52,506 nt of DNA from a virus: the UHGV virus genome UHGV-0041832. One strand, 5' to 3'. Positions 3,519 to 36,756 of the stretch are shown piece after piece. The position numbers and the translations under genes were made by a program. Every line of letters starts with the position of its first letter. Position 1 is the stretch's first letter. Below the pieces are notes generated by a model. The model did no database searches, had not been told where the DNA came from, and worked only from the letters and a program-made list of their open reading frames with translations.

Positions 3519-3725
3519 TCACACGATACGCATTGTGTTTCTTAATTCACCGCGCAGCGCCTGTAACGCTTCACGAATTGGAACAAAAACCCGTTTAAAT
3601 TTTACGTGTCTGTACTTGCGCATAAGTGGAGGTGTATAAACCATCGCGCCGCGAGAATCGCACGGGAAACGGAAATGTGATTCATCAATGAATGTTTCAA
3701 CTGAATAAAAGATTACCCGTCTCAT
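3519..3725 (-). CDS. Hypothetical small protein
   Basis: 68 aa ORF, overlaps upstream gene stop (coupled). Confidence 0.4.
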   Translation of the reverse strand: MRRVIFYSVETFIDESHFRFPCDSRGAMVYTPPLMRKYRHVKFKRVFVPIREALQALRGELRNTMRIV

Positions 3726-4315
3726 AATTCTAACCCCGTTTCGCTGTTAAGTTTTTCGATTTCAAATACTGGTTTATCAGGCAGCAGGCCGTTATTTTTC
3801 CGGTATTCGTTCAGGCGGCTATCAAAATCAAACGCGAGATCATTAGCGTGACCGAATCGCCCAGGTTTAAACAGTGAGTAAAAATTAAGACCGTGTTTAT
3901 TGGTGTCTATGCAAAGTGTTTCATCCAGCACCATTAAACGCAGCGTGCGCGACAGGTAATTCCATGGGATACCCGTTTCAGCGCTAATATCTCTCATACG
4001 CTTTTTAACGCTGTAGTCACTAAATAACGCTGCCACACGATCACGACGTTGAGCGTACAAGTATTTAATTCGATACCCAAGCAAGCGGCGGCGCGGTCCG
4101 AAATATGTATACACACGCTCAACAATACCAGTATCGATCAGGTGTTTAATTGTCTCAGGCAAACATCCTGCTTCGTCATATTCCGCTGATAATCCTGTTT
4201 TCTGGCGTAACTGGTGCATTGTGTCGATGCCATCCAGTTCAAGGATATTGATAATTTTTGTTTCAAGTTCAACGCTCATTGTTTTTAGCCTCGATTTAAG
4301 CGCGAAAACAGCCAC
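3722..4315 (-). CDS. Hypothetical protein
   Basis: 197 aa ORF immediately downstream of DnaB in the leftward operon; true start may be the internal MSVELETK. Confidence 0.5.
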   Translation of the reverse strand: MAVFALKSRLKTMSVELETKIINILELDGIDTMHQLRQKTGLSAEYDEAGCLPETIKHLIDTGIVERVYTYFGPRRRLLGYRIKYLYAQRRDRVAALFSDYSVKKRMRDISAETGIPWNYLSRTLRLMVLDETLCIDTNKHGLNFYSLFKPGRFGHANDLAFDFDSRLNEYRKNNGLLPDKPVFEIEKLNSETGLEL

Positions 4316-4358: not shown

Positions 4359-5780
4359 TTAAAAGGATGCGTTATTCTGGTTATTTCGTGGTGAGAATCG
4401 GCTTGCCGCAGGACGTTGTTGCATTGACTGGATGCAAGCTGACGCCGCGCGGGCCTGGTCGCATGGTAAGATGTTGCCGTTATCGTCAAACCGCTGGTAA
4501 ACAGTCCCCGTTTTCCCGTGACGGTTTTTTGAAACAATGATCTCCATGTATTCGCGGGCAACAGATTGTTCGTTGTAGTATCCGTCTCGGTACACCATGA
4601 TGATACGGTCGGCGTCTTGCTCAAGGTTCCCGGAATCGCGCAGATCAGAATTGTTCGGGCGCTTGTTCGGTCGTTCCTCAACGCGGCGGGATAATTGCGC
4701 AAGTGCCGCCACTGGTACGCGCAATTCCTTCGCCATCATCTTCAATGACCATGACAATTGCCCTACAGCGAGATCGTGACGTTCTGCCTTAGCCAGCTTC
4801 ATTAACCCGATGTAGTCAATCATTACCATACCCAGGTTGGGATGATTCTGCTTCATTCGTTCAGTTGTGGCGCGTATTTCCTCGACAGTTAACTGTGATG
4901 CATCAACAATCCACACATCGAGATCAGCAAGTGCGCTCATTCCCTGGGTAACGTGCGCCCATCCTTCTTCATCCAGTTTTACCGGATTACGTAGGCAATC
5001 CGTTGACAAGTTCCCTGCGCCAGCGATAGCGCGTTCAGTCATCTGATCGAGCGACATTTCAAGCGTGAACAGCAAAACGCCTACCCGCTGACCTTCTCCG
5101 CCAGGGTATTGGCGTTCAGCCGCCGCGCGGGCAATTGCCAACGCCAACGCCGATTTACCAGACCCTGGGCGTCCGGCGATAAGCACCAGATCAGTAGCGT
5201 TAATGCCGCCTAACATTTCGTCGAGTGGGTCAATCCCTGTTTTGATGTTGTCAGAGTTCACGCCACACTCCATGCGTTTACTTAGCACTTCCGTGTATTC
5301 CTGGACAGCATCGCGCAACAGCACCGGGATAATCTGATCTTTTATTACCTTTAATTTTGAATACCGGGAATCAAAATCTTTCATCGTCTCTTTGACGACC
5401 TCAAGAGTCCCCGTTTCCAGTTTGTAGCGCATATCGTCGATGAGTTCCAACATCTGCCGACGCTGGTGCTCTTCACGTAGTAGCTGTGCGTATCCCTTCA
5501 GGTTGGCAGCAGAAGGGCACGATCGCGCCGTTTGCATTAGCGGTACAAAGTTTTCATTACCAATCTCATCGCCAACCAGTAACGCGTCGATGAGATTTCT
5601 GTTTCTGGCTTGCGCCCGGATAACTTCAAACGCACGTTTATAAAGCGGGATCGTGAACACTTCAGGATCAAGTGTGGCGAGAACATCTTGCGCGTTAGGA
5701 GTAAGGCCACCTAACAGTAGCCCGCCGATAACTGACGCTTCACGTTCCTGCTGTAGTGAGTTTATTTGCTCAGTTACCAT
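4359..5780 (-). CDS. dnaB: Replicative DNA helicase, DnaB family
   Basis: 473 aa; DnaB N-terminal domain (EREASVIGGLLLGG) and RecA-like core with Walker A GRPGSGKSALALAIA, plus downstream helicase motifs. Confidence 0.92.
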   Translation of the reverse strand: MVTEQINSLQQEREASVIGGLLLGGLTPNAQDVLATLDPEVFTIPLYKRAFEVIRAQARNRNLIDALLVGDEIGNENFVPLMQTARSCPSAANLKGYAQLLREEHQRRQMLELIDDMRYKLETGTLEVVKETMKDFDSRYSKLKVIKDQIIPVLLRDAVQEYTEVLSKRMECGVNSDNIKTGIDPLDEMLGGINATDLVLIAGRPGSGKSALALAIARAAAERQYPGGEGQRVGVLLFTLEMSLDQMTERAIAGAGNLSTDCLRNPVKLDEEGWAHVTQGMSALADLDVWIVDASQLTVEEIRATTERMKQNHPNLGMVMIDYIGLMKLAKAERHDLAVGQLSWSLKMMAKELRVPVAALAQLSRRVEERPNKRPNNSDLRDSGNLEQDADRIIMVYRDGYYNEQSVAREYMEIIVSKNRHGKTGTVYQRFDDNGNILPCDQARAASACIQSMQQRPAASRFSPRNNQNNASF

Positions 5781-5798: not shown

Positions 5799-6917
5799 TT
5801 ACAAAATGGAATATTCAGGGTAATAAACAAAGCGCCCAATTTCCCCATGATCCGGGCTGTAAATAATCACCGCTGCCAGACGCCGCGACCGCCAGCCGCC
5901 ATTAGTTGAATATGCGTCTTTGCCAGCTAATGTGCCGTGGTGCTCAACTATTCCAAGTGATGTTTCAACAACTGATTGATGGTGCAGATGTCCAGTGTGA
6001 GCGTAAACAGCCACAGACCTCCCGAAATCCTCCCGCCAGTCAGATACGCAAGCCGACAATAAATTTTCCGGCTTTTTGATAGTGTGCCCGTGGTGGTAAG
6101 CAAGGAATGTTTTGCCGTACTGTGTGTGGTGGACGATAGCAGGGGACACATCAACAGTTACGCGCGGTTCATCTTCGTAAAAAGCCGCCAGCGCCGCACG
6201 TAGCCAAATCATGCCAGACTGATCGTGATTGCCTGATAGTACCTGGATTTCAATATCCTTATGATTTAACAACATCTTTCCTACCGCCCGACGTACCGCT
6301 CGGATCGCTACATAGACAAGTTTTGCATAGCGTGAATCGCAATCCAGTACGTGATTGCTTGATGGCGTAACTGGCAACAGCCCGTCAGTGTGAAGAACAT
6401 CCCCACCGAGAAGCAAAACAGCTTTTTCAGACATCGGCGCAGCGCCCACCGCGTAGTCAAAGAATTCATTCAACACGCGTTCAGCGATCCCAGTGTCGTA
6501 GCTCTCGCCGCATTCAGCTTTATGAGCAAGCGCCCCGATATGCAGATCAAATACCGGATAAAGGGCCAGGCTTTTTTGAAAATCAATTTCAGGCACTGGC
6601 ACGGCCTCCGCGCGTGGTATTTCTTCCGTGAATGCGTCGCGGGCAGCTTCCATTAGCCTTTCCATTTCATCACGGTCACGGGCAGTTTTAATCCAGCGCA
6701 TGACCGTATTACCAGCCTTATCGACAAGAACAGATTCACCAGTAACGCCAAAACCAGGCGCGCGACGCGTTGATATTAAACCGCGTTTCGCCAGTTTTGC
6801 GCCTAGCCGCTCGACGTTGCGTTTTGACATGCCATATTTTTCAGCGATCTGCTTGTACGTTAAACCGTTGTTATATTCAGCGATCAATTGCTCATCGCTG
6901 ATTTTTCTTTGCGACAT
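5799..6917 (-). CDS. HTH domain fused to calcineurin-like metallophosphoesterase
   Basis: 372 aa; N-terminal HTH (LTYKQIAEKYGMSKRNVERL); all canonical phosphoesterase motifs visible in order: DLH, GDVLHTD, GNHD, YHHGH, GHLHH. Confidence 0.7.
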   Translation of the reverse strand: MSQRKISDEQLIAEYNNGLTYKQIAEKYGMSKRNVERLGAKLAKRGLISTRRAPGFGVTGESVLVDKAGNTVMRWIKTARDRDEMERLMEAARDAFTEEIPRAEAVPVPEIDFQKSLALYPVFDLHIGALAHKAECGESYDTGIAERVLNEFFDYAVGAAPMSEKAVLLLGGDVLHTDGLLPVTPSSNHVLDCDSRYAKLVYVAIRAVRRAVGKMLLNHKDIEIQVLSGNHDQSGMIWLRAALAAFYEDEPRVTVDVSPAIVHHTQYGKTFLAYHHGHTIKKPENLLSACVSDWREDFGRSVAVYAHTGHLHHQSVVETSLGIVEHHGTLAGKDAYSTNGGWRSRRLAAVIIYSPDHGEIGRFVYYPEYSIL

Positions 6918-6950: not shown

Positions 6951-7874
6951 TTATTGACAGCAAACAATCTCTTTATATGTTTCTTCTACCATGTCGAATA
7001 CTTCCGGCCTGTAATAAAAAAATTCAGTGCTACCATCAAACTTAACAGGGAAGTTTATTTTATAGTCACTGAAAGCATCGTGCATTTTGCTTTCTATTTC
7101 CTGCATAATCTCAGTAGGCCCATTCCATGTTTTAACTACCTGTAAATCAGTCAGCCTTACACCTGCCTTACGAGCACTTTTAAATACTCTGTTCCTCCTT
7201 TCGTTCTCTTTTACGCTTACACCAATTTTCATTTGTGTAGGCACTTCAAGATCATCAACCATGATGTAAAGTTTTCCGTTGTAGTGTGATAAAAACCCGT
7301 ATTTAGCGCATTTCGGGCAACCGCGCCCGCTCTTAATGTCTCTAGGTTTAGCCGACCACTCATGATCACAAACCTTGCAGCGGCATAATACTTTTGTACT
7401 GTTATTAACTATTTCAACCAGCACTTCAATATCAGGATTAACCTTAGCAATAGCCGATATTTGTTCTTCATGCGATATTTTTTTGCCTTGCGCTCGTTTT
7501 AGCACCGCACATTTCTGGCAACCGCTCCCGATCTTAAGGCTTTTAGGTGTAGAATACCACTCATGATCACAAACCTTGCAGCGGCATAATACTTTTATTT
7601 TGTCGCCGGTAATTTCCCCAAGCACTTCAATATCAGGATTAACCTTAGCAATAGCCGATATTTGTTCTTCATGCGATAACTTCATATTCCCAGCGCATTT
7701 CTGGCAACCACGTCCATATTTAATATTGCTAGGTGTAGCCGACCATTCATGGTTACAAACTTTGCAGCGACATAATACTTTTGTACTGTTATTAACAATT
7801 TCCCCTAACACTTCAACATCAGGATTAACTTTCGCGATAGCTGCAACTTGTTCTTCATGTGTTAACTTGCGCAT
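6951..7874 (-). CDS. Three tandem CxxC..CxxC zinc-ribbon repeats fused to a T5orf172 (GIY-YIG-like) C-terminal domain
   Basis: 307 aa; three ~64-aa repeats (HEEQxxAIAKVNPDxEVLGEI...KVLCRCKVCxHEW...GxGCxKC); C-terminal GKLYIMVDD...KIGVS...FDGSTEFF resembles T5orf172. Confidence 0.6.
   Translation of the reverse strand: MRKLTHEEQVAAIAKVNPDVEVLGEIVNNSTKVLCRCKVCNHEWSATPSNIKYGRGCQKCAGNMKLSHEEQISAIAKVNPDIEVLGEITGDKIKVLCRCKVCDHEWYSTPKSLKIGSGCQKCAVLKRAQGKKISHEEQISAIAKVNPDIEVLVEIVNNSTKVLCRCKVCDHEWSAKPRDIKSGRGCPKCAKYGFLSHYNGKLYIMVDDLEVPTQMKIGVSVKENERRNRVFKSARKAGVRLTDLQVVKTWNGPTEIMQEIESKMHDAFSDYKINFPVKFDGSTEFFYYRPEVFDMVEETYKEIVCCQ
7310..7874. repeat. Three direct ~195-bp tandem repeats inside the zinc-ribbon gene
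   Basis: Near-identical DNA segments (e.g. agcacttcaatatcaggattaaccttagcaatagccgatatttgttcttcatgcgata at 7425-7482 and 7624-7681); also evident as duplicated alt-frame ORFs 7375..7566 and 7576..7890. Confidence 0.85.
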
Positions 7875-8013
7875 CGCTCCAACTCCTTAAGAACATCATG
7901 CGCGCTACAACGCAAAAACCCACCGCGACACCCGTTTGCACAGGTTGCAGTGTCTTATTGCGTCAGAGACGCCATCAGGTGGCTAATTTTCGATTTACAG
8001 AATGGTAGGTAGG

Positions 8014-8115
8014 TTATGGATTGATTAGCAGGTACAGACCGCCGAACAAGGCGACGTTAACAGCGATTGCCGCAGCGATGGCAAAAGCCAGGGCGAAAAC
8101 GTGTTTACCGTCCAT
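8014..8115 (-). CDS. Possible 33-aa hydrophobic mini-protein
   Basis: Hand-translated MDGKHVFALAFAIAAAIAVNVALFGGLYLLINP with GAGAGGA-like SD upstream; below ORF-track size cutoff. Confidence 0.25.
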   Translation of the reverse strand: MDGKHVFALAFAIAAAIAVNVALFGGLYLLINP

Positions 8116-8249
8116 TTTAAAATCCTCTCTGTAACGCTCTATAACGAGCTAATCGCAAAAAGGTAAGCAAAGTGTAGCACCACATGCGATTTAGCTCGCT
8201 GGTGAGGTTGTTTTGTGGGTAATTTTGGATTTTTGCGGATCGTGATTGG

Positions 8250-9302
8250 TCAAAGAACGCCAGCGCGCGTATCACGTAGCGTTTTTGGTTTAAGCAGGAA
8301 ATCAAGTGTCGCGGTGAAGCCATCGCCGAAGTAAAAATCTGAAGCCGTGTTTTTGAACGTTTCGAAGTAGGCGACAAAGCCGTTAATGCTTTTGTCTTTC
8401 AGGTAGTCAGTGAACGCATAGATCTTGCGTTCAAGATCCCGATCCAGTTCGGCAGGTGGTAACAGGCCGTCAAACGTGCTGTTAAATGCTTCCACCACGT
8501 CGGCAGCGTTTACAGTGGCTGACAGTTTGCGCCATTGTTCAGCATCAGTCAGATACCCATCAAATTTAGTTACCCGGCAAATGTTGATAGGCTTAGGTAC
8601 TCCACCACGGCTACGCCATTGGGTTAAAGCCCACTCAATTACTAACGTGATCTCATTCTCCGTATACGCTTTACGTGTTTTTGTTTCTGTCAGTAGTTCT
8701 ACGAATGGCTTAGCATCACGACATTTGCATCCTGCCTTGTCGTTGTAGAAGGCAAGGCAACGCAATGCCGCTTCGTTTACGCCATCCTGATTGACCATTT
8801 TTTGTTCATTTTCGACAATACACGAAGTGTATATATCTTTTTCTCTTTCTTTTTCTACTTCTAATTCTAATTCATGACCCTTTCCTGACCCGGTCATGAC
8901 CCTATCATGACCTTTTTGTGTTGGATTGATTAACTTTTCTAATTTTAATTGCTCCTTCGCTGTGTTTATGGCGGCCCTGTAAGCGCTTTTAGAAGTCATT
9001 GATTGGTCCAGCCTTTTCAATAACTTTAAACAAGTTATGTGGCCTTGAGAACATTCAAACAAACCAATTTCGATGAAGTATTTCATCATTTCTTCTATAC
9101 GTTTTTCAGTAGATCCGACGTTTCGCGCAATGATTCTCGCGTCATGTCGTAGGTCAAAATTCAGATTGTGCTGATCTACGTCATAAGTTATTAGTTCGAG
9201 GCAATACCAATAAAGCCCGTACCCTTCCAGGCCATAATCTAACAAAACGTTTTGAAGTTTTTCATCGCGGTTCGCATCGCTGTCATGCTTAAACCACTTC
9301 AT
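8250..9302 (-). CDS. Replication initiation / replisome organizer-like protein
   Basis: 350 aa; N-terminal MKWFKHDSDANRDEKL...YGLEGYGLYWYCLELI matches phage replisome-organizer N-terminal domain pattern; sits upstream of DnaB in the PR-type operon. Confidence 0.72.
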   Translation of the reverse strand: MKWFKHDSDANRDEKLQNVLLDYGLEGYGLYWYCLELITYDVDQHNLNFDLRHDARIIARNVGSTEKRIEEMMKYFIEIGLFECSQGHITCLKLLKRLDQSMTSKSAYRAAINTAKEQLKLEKLINPTQKGHDRVMTGSGKGHELELEVEKEREKDIYTSCIVENEQKMVNQDGVNEAALRCLAFYNDKAGCKCRDAKPFVELLTETKTRKAYTENEITLVIEWALTQWRSRGGVPKPINICRVTKFDGYLTDAEQWRKLSATVNAADVVEAFNSTFDGLLPPAELDRDLERKIYAFTDYLKDKSINGFVAYFETFKNTASDFYFGDGFTATLDFLLKPKTLRDTRAGVL

Positions 9303-9305
9303 AGA

Positions 9306-9641
9306 TCATCCCTCCGGCAACATCACTACATAGACATCACTGAATGCATCAAGACGACAAACAAATCCTTTATCCATTAACGCGGCGAAGGCATCATGTA
9401 CCGTATGAACAGGAAGTTCACACATTGCGGCTACTTCTTTGCGTGATGCATCATGTACCCGTCCTTTGTTATCTGCCTTTTCAGCCAGAGCCATTAAGAC
9501 AAGTTTTTGAATCGGGCTATTAAGTTTTACGTTCCATGCTTTACTAATCATGTTCATACTCATCGCATTTTCTCCTATGGTTAGAGTGAACGCGCGGGCG
9601 GGCATCCCATTAGCATTAGATAGCAGTGACTGACCGCTCAA
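9306..9641 (-). CDS. HTH DNA-binding protein (HTH_36-like), first gene of leftward early operon
   Basis: KLVLMALAEKADNKGRV...SRKEVAAMCELPVHTVHDAFAALMDKGFV winged-helix pattern. The track start is a TTG; a downstream ATG (MPARAF or MSMNMISKAW) is more likely. No separate Cro-sized ORF was found. Confidence 0.55.
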   Translation of the reverse strand: MSGQSLLSNANGMPARAFTLTIGENAMSMNMISKAWNVKLNSPIQKLVLMALAEKADNKGRVHDASRKEVAAMCELPVHTVHDAFAALMDKGFVCRLDAFSDVYVVMLPEG

Positions 9642-10545: not shown

Positions 10546-10753
10546 NNNNNNNNNNNNNNNNNNNNNNNNNNNNNNNNNNNNNNNNNNNNNNNNNNNNNNN
10601 NNNNNNNNNNNNNNNNNNNNNNNNNNNNNNNNNNNNNNNNNNNNNNNNNNNCTTTTCTTTGCCTGGAAAACACCAAAACGTAAACAGAAAACGTTATTTA
10701 TTATTTAAATATCAATGCCATATAAAATATTTTAAAAAAGTATACAAAATGGA

Positions 10754-11567: not shown

Positions 11568-12212
11568 ATGGTGAAAACAGAGTTACATAAAAAGCTATGG
11601 ACGATTCAGCAAACGCTGAACGCGCCGAAAAATCAGCGTAATAATTTTGGTGGATATAATTACAGGTCGGCGGAGGATATTTTAGAGGCGGTTAAACCAC
11701 TGCTTCAAAGTATTACGCTGACTGTAAGCGATGAAATTGTCCTGATCGGCAATCGCTATTATGTGAAAGCTACGGCGACGCTAAGCGACGGTGAAGACGA
11801 AATAGCGGTAACGGCTTACGCCAGGGAAGAAGAAAGCAAGAAGGGAATGGACGCAAGCCAGCTAACAGGTGCGACATCAAGTTACGCGCGAAAATATGCT
11901 TTGAACGGTTTATTCTGCATTGATGATGCGCGAGATCCTGATACTGACGCATACGCTAAGCAGACAGGCCAGCAGCCTCGCCAGCAGAAAAACCCACCAA
12001 AACAACAACCACAGCAGCAGAAAGCGCCGCCAAATCCTGATGAAGTATTAGCACGTTTCTGTGATGCAGCAGCGAAAGCGCAGGACGCTAACAAGCTGCG
12101 TGAAATATTTGGCAAATGCTGGAAATTACTACCGGAAGGATCGGAACATCGAATCAAGGCAAAAGATGTTTATGACATCCGGGTAGCAGAGCTTAACGGG
12201 GAGATGGGTTAA
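11568..12212 (+). CDS. erf: Erf-family single-strand annealing recombinase
   Basis: Strong resemblance from memory to P22 Erf (LNAPKNQ...YRSAEDILEAVKPLL...SDEIVLIGNRYYVKATATLSDGE...AREEESKKGMDASQLTGATSSYARKYALNGLF). Confidence 0.92.
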   Translation: MVKTELHKKLWTIQQTLNAPKNQRNNFGGYNYRSAEDILEAVKPLLQSITLTVSDEIVLIGNRYYVKATATLSDGEDEIAVTAYAREEESKKGMDASQLTGATSSYARKYALNGLFCIDDARDPDTDAYAKQTGQQPRQQKNPPKQQPQQQKAPPNPDEVLARFCDAAAKAQDANKLREIFGKCWKLLPEGSEHRIKAKDVYDIRVAELNGEMG

Positions 12213-12616
12213 TGAGTTTAAATTCAATCACGCTGGGCGGGAATATCGGTAATGATATGGAGGTTCGCTACACACAAAACGGGAAAGCGATTGGTAGTTT
12301 TCCGTTAGCTGTAACGAATGGCTACGGCGATAATAAGCGGACAATGTGGGTCACTTGCCTGGTATTTGGTGAGCGTGCGGAAAAATTAGCGCCACATATC
12401 CGCAAGGGTGGAAAAATAGTGGTAAGCGGTCGCCTGGATGTTCGGCAATATGACCGGAACGACGGCACGAAGGGAACGGCGGTAGAAGTGGCGGTTAACG
12501 AATTTGAATTCATGAACGTTAACCAACAAGGCCAGCAGCAGAAAGCGCCTCCGCAGCAGCAGAATAATAACGGGAATAATCCGCCGATGGACTTTGATGA
12601 CGATATCCCGTTTTGA
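12212..12616 (+). CDS. ssb: Single-stranded DNA-binding protein
   Basis: OB-fold N-terminus, Gln/Pro-rich linker, acidic C-terminal tail DFDDDIPF. Confidence 0.92.
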   Translation: MSLNSITLGGNIGNDMEVRYTQNGKAIGSFPLAVTNGYGDNKRTMWVTCLVFGERAEKLAPHIRKGGKIVVSGRLDVRQYDRNDGTKGTAVEVAVNEFEFMNVNQQGQQQKAPPQQQNNNGNNPPMDFDDDIPF

Positions 12617-18253: not shown

Positions 18254-18522
18254 CTTCAAGCAAACAAAATGCTCTTTAAAAATCCGGCAGCGCTGAAATG
18301 CGTAGAAATCACCTGAAAAGGAGAGAGCATTATGTCTTTTGATGATTACCAATGGCATGACGACTATGAACGAGAAAGCGTTATGCGTGCAATGTGCAAT
18401 GTATGCAGCACGAAGAAAGGAGGCTGTAACGAGTGCAACGAATGCTTAGAACATTGGCTAAGGGCCGGACACGCCGAAAGGCTGAACGAAACAGAGAATC
18501 AAAAATAATCGGGGTGGTTTTT

Positions 18523-19128
18523 ATGCAAAACCCTAAAAAACCCATAAGACGCCGTTGCAAATGCTGCGGCGTTTTTTTTGAGCCTAAATATCACAATCAA
18601 ACGTGGTGCAGCGATGAATGTCTGGAAGAACTGAAGTTTGACCAGCTATGCCGCGACCGTGAGAAGGCTATGAAGGCTATGGAGCGGAAGAAACGCCGTG
18701 ATAGCCAGAGGGAAGAACGCAACCGGAAGCGTAAACAGTTAAATCCGCGTAGTTATTGGATCAAACAAGTTCAAAATGTATTTAACGCCTATATTCGCGA
18801 ACGTGACGCGCGCTTGCCGTGTATATCTTGCGGGACTTACTACGGTGAGCAATGCGGGTGGGATGCAGGTCATTACAGGACGGTAGCCGCCGCCGGACAC
18901 CTTCGCTTCAACGAGGATAATTGCCATAAGCAATGTAGGCACTGCAACCAGACACTAGACGGCAACATCGGAGGGTATCGCCCGGCGCTGATTCGAAAAA
19001 TTGGCCTCGCCAGGGTGGTAGCTCTGGAGAACAACAACGATACGCATAAATGGACGATTGCAGAATGTAAGGAGCTAATAAACATCTATCAGGCGAAATT
19101 GGACGCCTTAAGGAGAAAGGCAGCATGA
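18523..19128 (+). CDS. ninG: NinG (Rap) recombination protein
   Basis: Strong match from memory to lambda NinG (RRRCKxxxCxxxFxP...PRSYWIKQxQ...IRERDxxLPCISCGT...WDAGHYRTxAAAxxLRFNExNxHKQC...HRWTIxECK). ORF track starts at 18433; the ATG at 18523 fits the homologue. Confidence 0.88.
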   Translation: MQNPKKPIRRRCKCCGVFFEPKYHNQTWCSDECLEELKFDQLCRDREKAMKAMERKKRRDSQREERNRKRKQLNPRSYWIKQVQNVFNAYIRERDARLPCISCGTYYGEQCGWDAGHYRTVAAAGHLRFNEDNCHKQCRHCNQTLDGNIGGYRPALIRKIGLARVVALENNNDTHKWTIAECKELINIYQAKLDALRRKAA

Positions 19129-19532: not shown

Positions 19533-19711
19533 AAAACGAAGTTAAAGATCTGCAAATAGATATTCAGCGCGACGAGCGTGATTTAGAGACGGTCCGACAA
19601 ATCCAGGCTTTCCACATGCGCGAATTACTTGCGCTGAAAGAGTTCGAAAGAAAGCTGGTGCAATCCATTTCTGATCGTAAACGGCTGGCGGCGCGTTATG
19701 AGGGCAAATAA
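19529..19711 (+). CDS. Hypothetical small coiled-coil protein
   Basis: 60 aa ORF, coupled. Confidence 0.4.
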   Translation: MKNEVKDLQIDIQRDERDLETVRQIQAFHMRELLALKEFERKLVQSISDRKRLAARYEGK

Positions 19712-20439
19712 TGAATTTAGAATCCATTCTAAAATTCCACTTTCCTAAATCACCGCGATTATCTGACGAAAGCCGGGGCACGTCCCCGGACGCTCTTAAT
19801 ACGACGGATGCGCTAACCGCTGCGGGTATGGCGCAATCGCGCGTAGAGCTTGGATATGGCGCTTTTTTAGGGAAGATGGAACTATCACAAGCCGAAAAAC
19901 ATAGGGCCGTAGTTTTGCTTACAGAGCGTTTAAGGGCTATGGCGAAAGATTACGAATACGTGATGGAGTTAAACGAGGATCAGCGCAATGGACTTATTAT
20001 TCTTGTTGCCGTTTTCGCGTTTCGGGATTATTGCCAGAGTGCGGCGACCGAAAAAGTTTGCCCTAAGTGCGGCGGCCACGGGCATTTACCAAATCCATAT
20101 TGCAAATACACATCGACAATTTGTTCGCGGTGCAACGGCAAAGGCTACGTTAAAAACCATTGCCAACGTTGCAAGGGGCGCGGAGAAGTACCGGATAAAG
20201 CAGCCAGTGAAGCGGCGGAAATGCCAGTATTCAAAACGTGCCAGCATTGCGGCGGGCGCGGGTACTCGCGTTTCCCGGTAGATCTCGTCCGGCAGGCCGT
20301 TAACCAGCTTGTTTTCCCGGTAAGCAGATCAACATGGTGGAAGAAATACCGGGTTTTCTATGAAGACGCCATAGCGGAGCTATTCAAAGAAGAGGCCCGC
20401 GCGGAAAGCGAAATTAAACGAGTGACACGGGGTGAATAA
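19711..20439 (+). CDS. Q-like late antiterminator candidate (zinc-finger rich)
   Basis: 242 aa starting MNLESI..., multiple CxxC pairs (CPKCGGHG, CSRCNGKG, CQRCKGRG, CQHCGGRG); position after NinG/RusA as for Q in lambdoid phages. Family assignment from memory, not verified. Confidence 0.55.
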   Translation: MNLESILKFHFPKSPRLSDESRGTSPDALNTTDALTAAGMAQSRVELGYGAFLGKMELSQAEKHRAVVLLTERLRAMAKDYEYVMELNEDQRNGLIILVAVFAFRDYCQSAATEKVCPKCGGHGHLPNPYCKYTSTICSRCNGKGYVKNHCQRCKGRGEVPDKAASEAAEMPVFKTCQHCGGRGYSRFPVDLVRQAVNQLVFPVSRSTWWKKYRVFYEDAIAELFKEEARAESEIKRVTRGE

Positions 20440-36600: not shown

Positions 36601-36756
36601 TTTCGTATTTCCTGTAACTCCCCGGCGCGATGCCGGGGNNNNNNNNNNNNNNNNNNNNNNNNNNNNNNNNNNNNNNNNNNNNNNNNNNNNNNNNNNNNNN
36701 NNNNNNNNNNNNNNNNNNNNNNNNNNGGGGATTTTTTTGTATGTGGAGCAAACAAA

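Follow-up and report, generated by a model that had tools for sequence, protein, structure and literature searches.

Gene organization at the locus

The DNA analysed here, UHGV virus genome UHGV-0041832 (52,506 nucleotides, hereafter the window), belongs to the mEpimmI group of Nus-dependent temperate coliphages (PMC11893012). Its nearest phage is mEp044 (94.6%), and one IMG/VR contig is 100% identical. The gene under study (5799–6917, minus strand) encodes a 372-residue protein in which a predicted helix-turn-helix (HTH) precedes a predicted metallophosphoesterase (MPE) domain. The open reading frame is as originally described: 372 codons beginning with an ATG with AGGAAA upstream, matched over its full length by PHROG 704. 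The gene is present in 35 of 5,426 complete E. coli genomes, where it is mostly named ‘hypothetical protein’.

A gene for a DnaB-family replicative helicase (4359–5780, minus strand; DnaB_C, 7e-76; DnaB N-terminal domain, 4e-12) lies 18 nt downstream. The placement of the MPE gene upstream of dnaB, as first proposed, was found at all 37 loci of the mEpimmI lineage and is absent outside it. The 18-nt spacer is fixed in 34 of these loci; in the other three an HNH-AP2 homing endonuclease gene separates the two genes, and the C-terminus of the MPE protein is remodelled. On the other side lies a free-standing homing-endonuclease-like gene (6951–7874, minus strand; DUF4379, 2e-21; CapR, 7e-15; phrog_681 endonuclease, 8e-57; weak matches to MUG113 and T5orf172). 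It encodes three treble-clef zinc-finger modules and a T5orf172/MUG113 C-terminal domain, and contains a tandem DNA repeat of 201 bp (7309–7678). The slot between initiator and MPE gene is variable, holding a zinc-finger homing endonuclease at 11 of the 37 loci, Bro-N proteins at seven and other genes elsewhere.

The O-like replication initiator gene (8250–9302, minus strand; Lin1244_N, 5.5e-11; phrog_345 and phrog_428) contains an iteron-like, partly palindromic array at 8871–8916 with an 11-bp period and 4.2 copies of TCATGACCC. This array is probably a replication origin within the initiator gene, as in lambda O. Comparison with loci L001–L040 indicated that the initiator region (9306–9641 and 8250–9302, minus strand) is modular: identity of the small HTH ‘replication initiation’ ORF ranges from 30 to 100%, whereas that of the MPE-dnaB block is 90–100%. 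Thus, initiator and origin specificity have been exchanged independently of MPE-DnaB. Such constancy, together with the linkage at every lineage locus and a replication module in which no lambda P- or DnaC-type loader is recognisable, would fit an accessory specific to DnaB: a non-canonical loader, or else a nuclease preparing single-stranded DNA entry sites at the origin. The DnaB helicases of P22-type phages do not require a separate loader. The MPE protein itself has no loader match in Pfam, PHROG or NCBIfam (lambda P or DnaC/DnaI AAA+) and no Walker A or AAA+ motif, in agreement with the original prediction that it is neither kind of loader, and both the MPE gene and dnaB persist where an HNH gene has come between them. 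A distant relative that has DnaB carries the two genes 3.5 kb apart, and the family is a core gene of Drexlerviridae that stands away from any DnaB in Jerseyvirus, Vibrio and Campylobacter phages. We rejected a helicase loader on the grounds of its missing homology and Walker A motif and the abundance of the family in phages without DnaB, and we give very little credence to a DnaB-specific accessory of any kind.

Several other features of the window were recorded. Downstream of dnaB, a 197-aa MarR-like or ‘Ren-like’ gene (3722–4315, minus strand) exists among relatives L006–L040 as two very different alleles, ~84–98% or ~35–38% identical to the window copy, in phages otherwise >90% identical; this is allelic replacement in a fixed slot. 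Plus-strand genes at 11568–12616, 18433–19128 and 19711–20439 belong to a set comprising an Erf-type annealing protein, SSB, NinG/Rap and a Q-like antiterminator (the last at 19711–20439). NinG/Rap and the Q-like antiterminator are on the arm opposite the replication genes, an unusual, non-lambdoid mEpimmI layout. No recognisable exonuclease partner adjoins the Erf-type protein or SSB in the window. The idea that the MPE protein is the exonuclease partner of this single-strand annealing protein is weakened by T1 and by a Microbulbifer prophage, both of which have a RecE- or YqaJ-type exonuclease with Erf as well as the MPE gene. Three runs of N (10546–10651, 106 nt; 36639–36726, 88 nt; 51398–51445, 48 nt) are masked or unresolved, and the 106-nt run is immediately downstream of the CI repressor gene, the expected place of the mEpimmI N-like antiterminator and nut region. 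The large ORFs scanned were the terminase, phrog_760 (no known function) and the tape measure; integrase, portal and tail tip were assigned by position or from the mEp044 annotation.

Domain architecture and catalytic motifs

Relatives were gathered with the window protein, a Jerseyvirus homolog (45% identity) and a Vibrio-phage homolog (31%) as seeds, yielding an alignment of 83 non-redundant sequences down to ~27% identity. An AlphaFold2 model built from this alignment had a mean pLDDT of 89.8 and a pTM of 0.76. The model begins with a three-helix HTH (residues 8–44, nucleotides 6786–6896; helices 8–16, 21–28 and 32–44), followed by a long conserved beta-hairpin (residues 56–80, 6678–6752; strands 56–65 and 71–80) in which W75 is invariant and S62 and K77 are nearly so. 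A helix (residues 82–97) and a lower-confidence linker to residue 113 (pLDDT 67–71; together 6579–6677) lead to the alpha/beta catalytic core (residues 114–366, 5820–6578). Pfam returned only sub-threshold HTH families for the protein itself and stronger HTH matches for its relatives, resembling sigma-70 region 4, Fis, LysR and MarR. Among 33 mEpimmI-lineage variants dN/dS was 0.066 overall, 0.045 in the HTH (residues 1–55) and 0.060 in the core. The gene is under purifying selection, the HTH included.

The original prediction had read DLH, GDVLHTD, GNHD, HHGH and GHLHH in order behind an N-terminal HTH, and all five were recovered, at residues 124, 172, 229, 275 and 309. They correspond to the ordered superfamily series DxH, GD, GNH[DE], H (275/276) and GHxH. 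On the minus strand, motif I (D124-L-H126) is encoded at 6540–6548, motif II (G172-D-V-L-H176-T-D, the Mre11-like GDxxH form) at 6384–6404, motif III (G229-N-H-D232) at 6222–6233, motif IV (H275-H276-G-H278) at 6084–6095 and motif V (G309-H-L-H-H313) at 5979–5993. D124, H126, G172, D173, H176, G229, N230, H231, H276, G309, H310 and H312 are invariant in the 83 sequences, and H275 is at least 90% conserved. As these 12 residues are invariant, the five motifs together form a conserved catalytic signature rather than a chance occurrence. Misalignment with the phosphoesterase fold would have counted against the prediction; in the model the core adopts the beta-sandwich MPE fold and each motif lies in a loop after a beta-strand. 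From the alignment and model, we conclude that the predicted two-metal phosphoesterase site is complete in a highly divergent calcineurin-like domain, and that the gene is a fusion of a predicted DNA-binding HTH module to an intact, predicted metal-dependent phosphoesterase.

The protein did not reach the gathering score of the Pfam models PF00149 (Metallophos) or PF12850 (Metallophos_2). Weak matches to Metallophos were obtained with 6 of the 83 relatives (best E 4e-4), and to Metallophos_2 with 5 (best 2e-4). The missing match reflects the sensitivity limit of these models and does not argue against an MPE fold; Pfam alone would miss this enzyme. Profile and structure searches were the check originally suggested. 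The best PDB profile match, which was weak (E ~0.1), was to Thermotoga Mre11/SbcD, with the motif II GDftH of the family opposite GDLLH. Nucleases were top-ranked in both fold searches, and the nuclease branch of the MPE fold is favoured, by a margin that is not decisive.

We also considered a protein phosphatase of the lambda NinI (PP-lambda) kind, that is, a PPP Ser/Thr phosphatase acting on host or phage phosphoproteins. In the lambda nin region ninI lies just after the NinG gene. NinI belongs to the same superfamily, and in some relatives the MPE gene occupies the comparable slot right after NinG. However, the window protein has neither the GDxHG, GDxVDRG and GNHE motifs nor the PPP variant of the fold, which upholds the distinction from PP1-like NinI drawn at the outset. 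The fold comparison excluded a NinI-like identity, one relative’s genome also has a separate small Pfam-Metallophos protein, and a phosphatase of this kind is extremely unlikely. That relative is the metagenomic phage L100, which carries a 216-aa Metallophos protein (1422–2072), possibly NinI-like by its size, and an HTH-MPE member (7001–8230). Its nin-like region also holds NinB, a dGTP diphosphohydrolase, HD_4 and dCMP deaminase.

Distribution and gene context of the family

PHROG 704 (‘DNA repair exonuclease’) matches the MPE protein end to end (E 1.1e-138, residues 4–368), and the protein is 58% identical to T1 gp16 (ST16) and 66% identical to TLS gp66. A tblastn search recovered the family from 2,045 of the 50,697 phage records, or ~4% of deposited phage genomes, the main hosts being Escherichia, Klebsiella, Salmonella, Vibrio, Campylobacter, Flavobacterium and Rhodobacter. 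An exhaustive HMM search yielded 6,317 clusters at 50% identity, nearly all of 380–410 aa with the same architecture; Campylobacter-phage members have no HTH. Besides being a core gene of Drexlerviridae, it is found in Jerseyvirus, Dhillonvirus and many Vibrio and marine phages. Thus, the gene is already catalogued and not new, and its linkage to dnaB is lineage-specific. In the literature searched we found no functional study of the PHROG 704/T1 gp16 family, and ‘exonuclease’ is a name from annotation. Other database labels include ‘proof-reading exonuclease’, ‘DNA polymerase II small subunit’, ‘oxidoreductase’, ‘Rrf2 family transcriptional regulator’, ‘sigma70_r4_2 domain protein’ and ‘DNA endonuclease-like’, and in one record the source is given as a ‘Streptococcus phage’. 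This annotation drift is that of a family without a curated model; the labels are guesses because the family has no Pfam model and no experiment was found. The family is thus a large ‘known unknown’, of which the window copy is an ordinary, well-conserved member.

Gene order differs among lineages. T1, TLS and Henu8 share the order helicase-Dam...(HNH)-MPE-(HNH)-holin, and the MPE gene precedes holin in 508 of 522 Drexlerviridae, some of which have a dNMP kinase or PNK gene after it. In Jerseyvirus and one metagenomic contig it lies among tail genes; lysis and head genes flank it in a Vibrio phage, and a ligase gene adjoins it in a Campylobacter phage. The order in a Microbulbifer prophage is NinG-MPE-dGTP diphosphohydrolase-holin-terminase, and other relatives carry the gene near those for beta-clamp, ThyX, RNR, dCMP deaminase and PolA. 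We surveyed the neighbours in a clade with ~30% identity to the window protein (80 loci). The 476 neighbouring ORFs fell into 322 clusters, the commonest being an upstream NinG/Rap (16 loci), followed by endolysin/holin, virion protein, HNH endonucleases (at least 10 loci) and dATP/dGTP diphosphohydrolase. With so many clusters and the top one at only 16 of 80 loci, there is no obligate or conserved partner gene. The MPE gene usually closes the early DNA-metabolism region and borders lysis or late genes, often after NinG.

This early/late boundary position, before holin in Drexlerviridae and in the post-NinG slot that is lambda Q’s, together with an HTH resembling those of known regulator families, raises the possibility that the main task of the protein is to regulate transcription, perhaps at the switch from early to late genes, with the MPE domain as a sensor or accessory. 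Across PHROG 704 relatives, however, the MPE core is conserved best, with its catalytic residues invariant, and the HTH varies most; in the Campylobacter-phage members it is missing altogether. In the window phage, moreover, the gene is far from the late operon, and mEpimmI phages have an N-like system (PMC11893012). As the window phage has its own Q-like antiterminator, a late-regulator role for the MPE protein is unnecessary, and we consider a primarily regulatory protein very unlikely.

Free-standing homing-endonuclease genes recur beside the MPE gene in phages that are unrelated to one another. Besides the window gene at 6951–7874, they were found at 7016–7624 in locus L034, 42028–42510 in T1 (L098), 5966–6637 in TLS (L183), 4513–4986 in L002, 6208–6717 in L004 and 8292–8909 in L099. 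HNH genes adjoin the MPE gene in T1, TLS, Henu8, a Vibrio phage and at least 10 marine loci. These arrangements suggest that homing has targeted this conserved gene repeatedly.

Proposed function

Our preferred reading, to which we assign a probability of about one half, is that the protein works alone as a metal-dependent DNA nuclease, with the HTH as its tether. It consists of two modules, an N-terminal (possibly winged) HTH with the beta-hairpin and then the divergent calcineurin-like MPE domain. The enzyme would act as a divalent-metal-dependent DNA phosphodiesterase with chemistry of the Mre11/SbcD/PolD-DP1 type, held on DNA by its own HTH, and its production would fall early in lytic growth, alongside that of initiator and DnaB helicase. 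We infer a DNA substrate and a nucleolytic activity from the intact predicted site, the selected HTH, the nuclease-like fold and the DNA-metabolism neighbourhoods. These also support the cautious wording of the original prediction, that the protein could be a nuclease or phosphodiesterase; most likely it is a DNA nuclease and not a new replication factor.

A possible but unlikely alternative is a small-molecule nucleotide phosphodiesterase or phosphatase serving counter-defence or nucleotide-pool remodelling, with the HTH used, for example, in autoregulation. Candidate substrates would be cyclic mono- or oligonucleotide immune signals, Ap4A, dNTP or dNMP, and 2',3'-cyclic phosphate ends. A fused, conserved and selected HTH, predicted to bind DNA, is not expected of such a hydrolase, and the first rank of nucleases in both fold searches also speaks against it. 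As for counter-defence, the PADLOC models matched no defence-related family (0 families), and the gene is not mentioned in the defence-trigger and escape literature examined. To our knowledge, no anti-CBASS, anti-Pycsar or anti-Thoeris enzyme has this fold and architecture.

What an HTH-tethered DNA nuclease would do may differ between phages. More speculatively, in virulent T1-like relatives it may break down the host chromosome for nucleotide salvage, and in the temperate phage of the window it could trim or process DNA ends, or replication or recombination intermediates. Restrained DNA processing is likelier here because the phage is temperate and the gene sits in an early operon, a setting in which DNA cleavage without discrimination would be at odds with lysogeny. 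The TLS re-annotation reports degradation of the host genome by both T1 and TLS; it does not identify the early gene product responsible and lists gp66 as ‘proof-reading exonuclease’ only (PMC11447400). The dNMP kinase or PNK gene behind the MPE gene in some Drexlerviridae would suit nucleotide salvage. In the literature searched, no link to a sequence was found for the classical T1 ‘gene 2.5’ host-degradation locus. The T1 mutants of Roberts and Drexler (1981) have a phenotype in generalized-transduction frequency. A bolder version, which we regard as quite unlikely, is that the family is the host-chromosome-destroying enzyme of T1-like phages, a T5 A1-like DNase with its own DNA-binding module, captured beside DnaB in the mEpimmI lineage for a restrained role such as opening DNA, or clearing it so that the helicase can enter, or processing replication intermediates. 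This version, if true, would establish a new class of Mre11-like phage nucleases that stand alone, are guided by an HTH and are very widespread. If the family were the host-DNA nuclease of T1-like phages, a question open since 1981 would be closed, and a second, independent MPE nuclease for host takeover would join T5 A1.

Comparison with known systems

T5 A1 is a pre-early predicted metallophosphatase reported to resemble nucleases of double-strand-break repair and of polymerase proofreading. Host-chromosome degradation requires A1, which is also sufficient for it and acts alongside the DNA-binding protein A2. A1 is a 556-aa protein of PHROG 1745, the only PHROG it matches, with its DNA-binding function on the separate protein A2, whereas the window protein has its own HTH. 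A profile of the A1 family (9 members) carries all five MPE motifs. Single-sequence tests and tests with this 9-member profile gave a superfamily-level alignment only, and a specific kinship with T5 A1/A2 was rejected: profile-profile alignment of the A1 and MPE families (hhalign) covered motifs I–III only (E 0.026, probability 1.9%), which makes the two analogues in one superfamily and not close kin. By analogy, A1 and A2 could serve as a functional model for an MPE domain plus a DNA-binding module. Phage records with an A1-family protein number 1,135, among them those of an Autographiviridae podophage, Caulobacter jumbo phages and Flavobacterium phages (homologs in Agrobacterium phage Atu_ph02, L094; Caulobacter phage CcrPW, L095; and a Flavobacterium phage, L096), a wider spread than the ‘predominantly Demerecviridae’ of the 2026 T5 preprint.

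Mre11/SbcD and the window protein have the nuclease-domain fold and the GDxxH form of motif II in common, with a profile similarity that is not significant (E 0.1). In contrast to Mre11/SbcD, the window protein has no C-terminal capping domain, ending about six residues past its core (114–366 of 372), and an N-terminal HTH stands in place of the cap and partner. The MPE gene’s neighbours are a homing endonuclease and DnaB, and no SMC-type ATPase partner of the Rad50/SbcC kind is present among them or among the large ORFs scanned in the window, so an Mre11-Rad50-type complex is not open to this phage’s MPE protein. Archaeal PolD DP1, a 3'-5' proofreading exonuclease to which the window protein is ~14% identical, has an OB fold before its PDE domain and a DP2 partner; the window protein has an HTH and beta-hairpin in place of the OB fold and no DP2 polymerase partner. 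The closest likeness is to PHROG 704 itself, T1 gp16 and TLS gp66, which share with the window protein the HTH, hairpin and MPE architecture and the invariant residues. The two differ in setting: the Drexlerviridae copy ends the helicase/Dam operon before the lysis cassette, whereas the window copy, in a temperate mEpimmI-group phage, is fixed beside dnaB.
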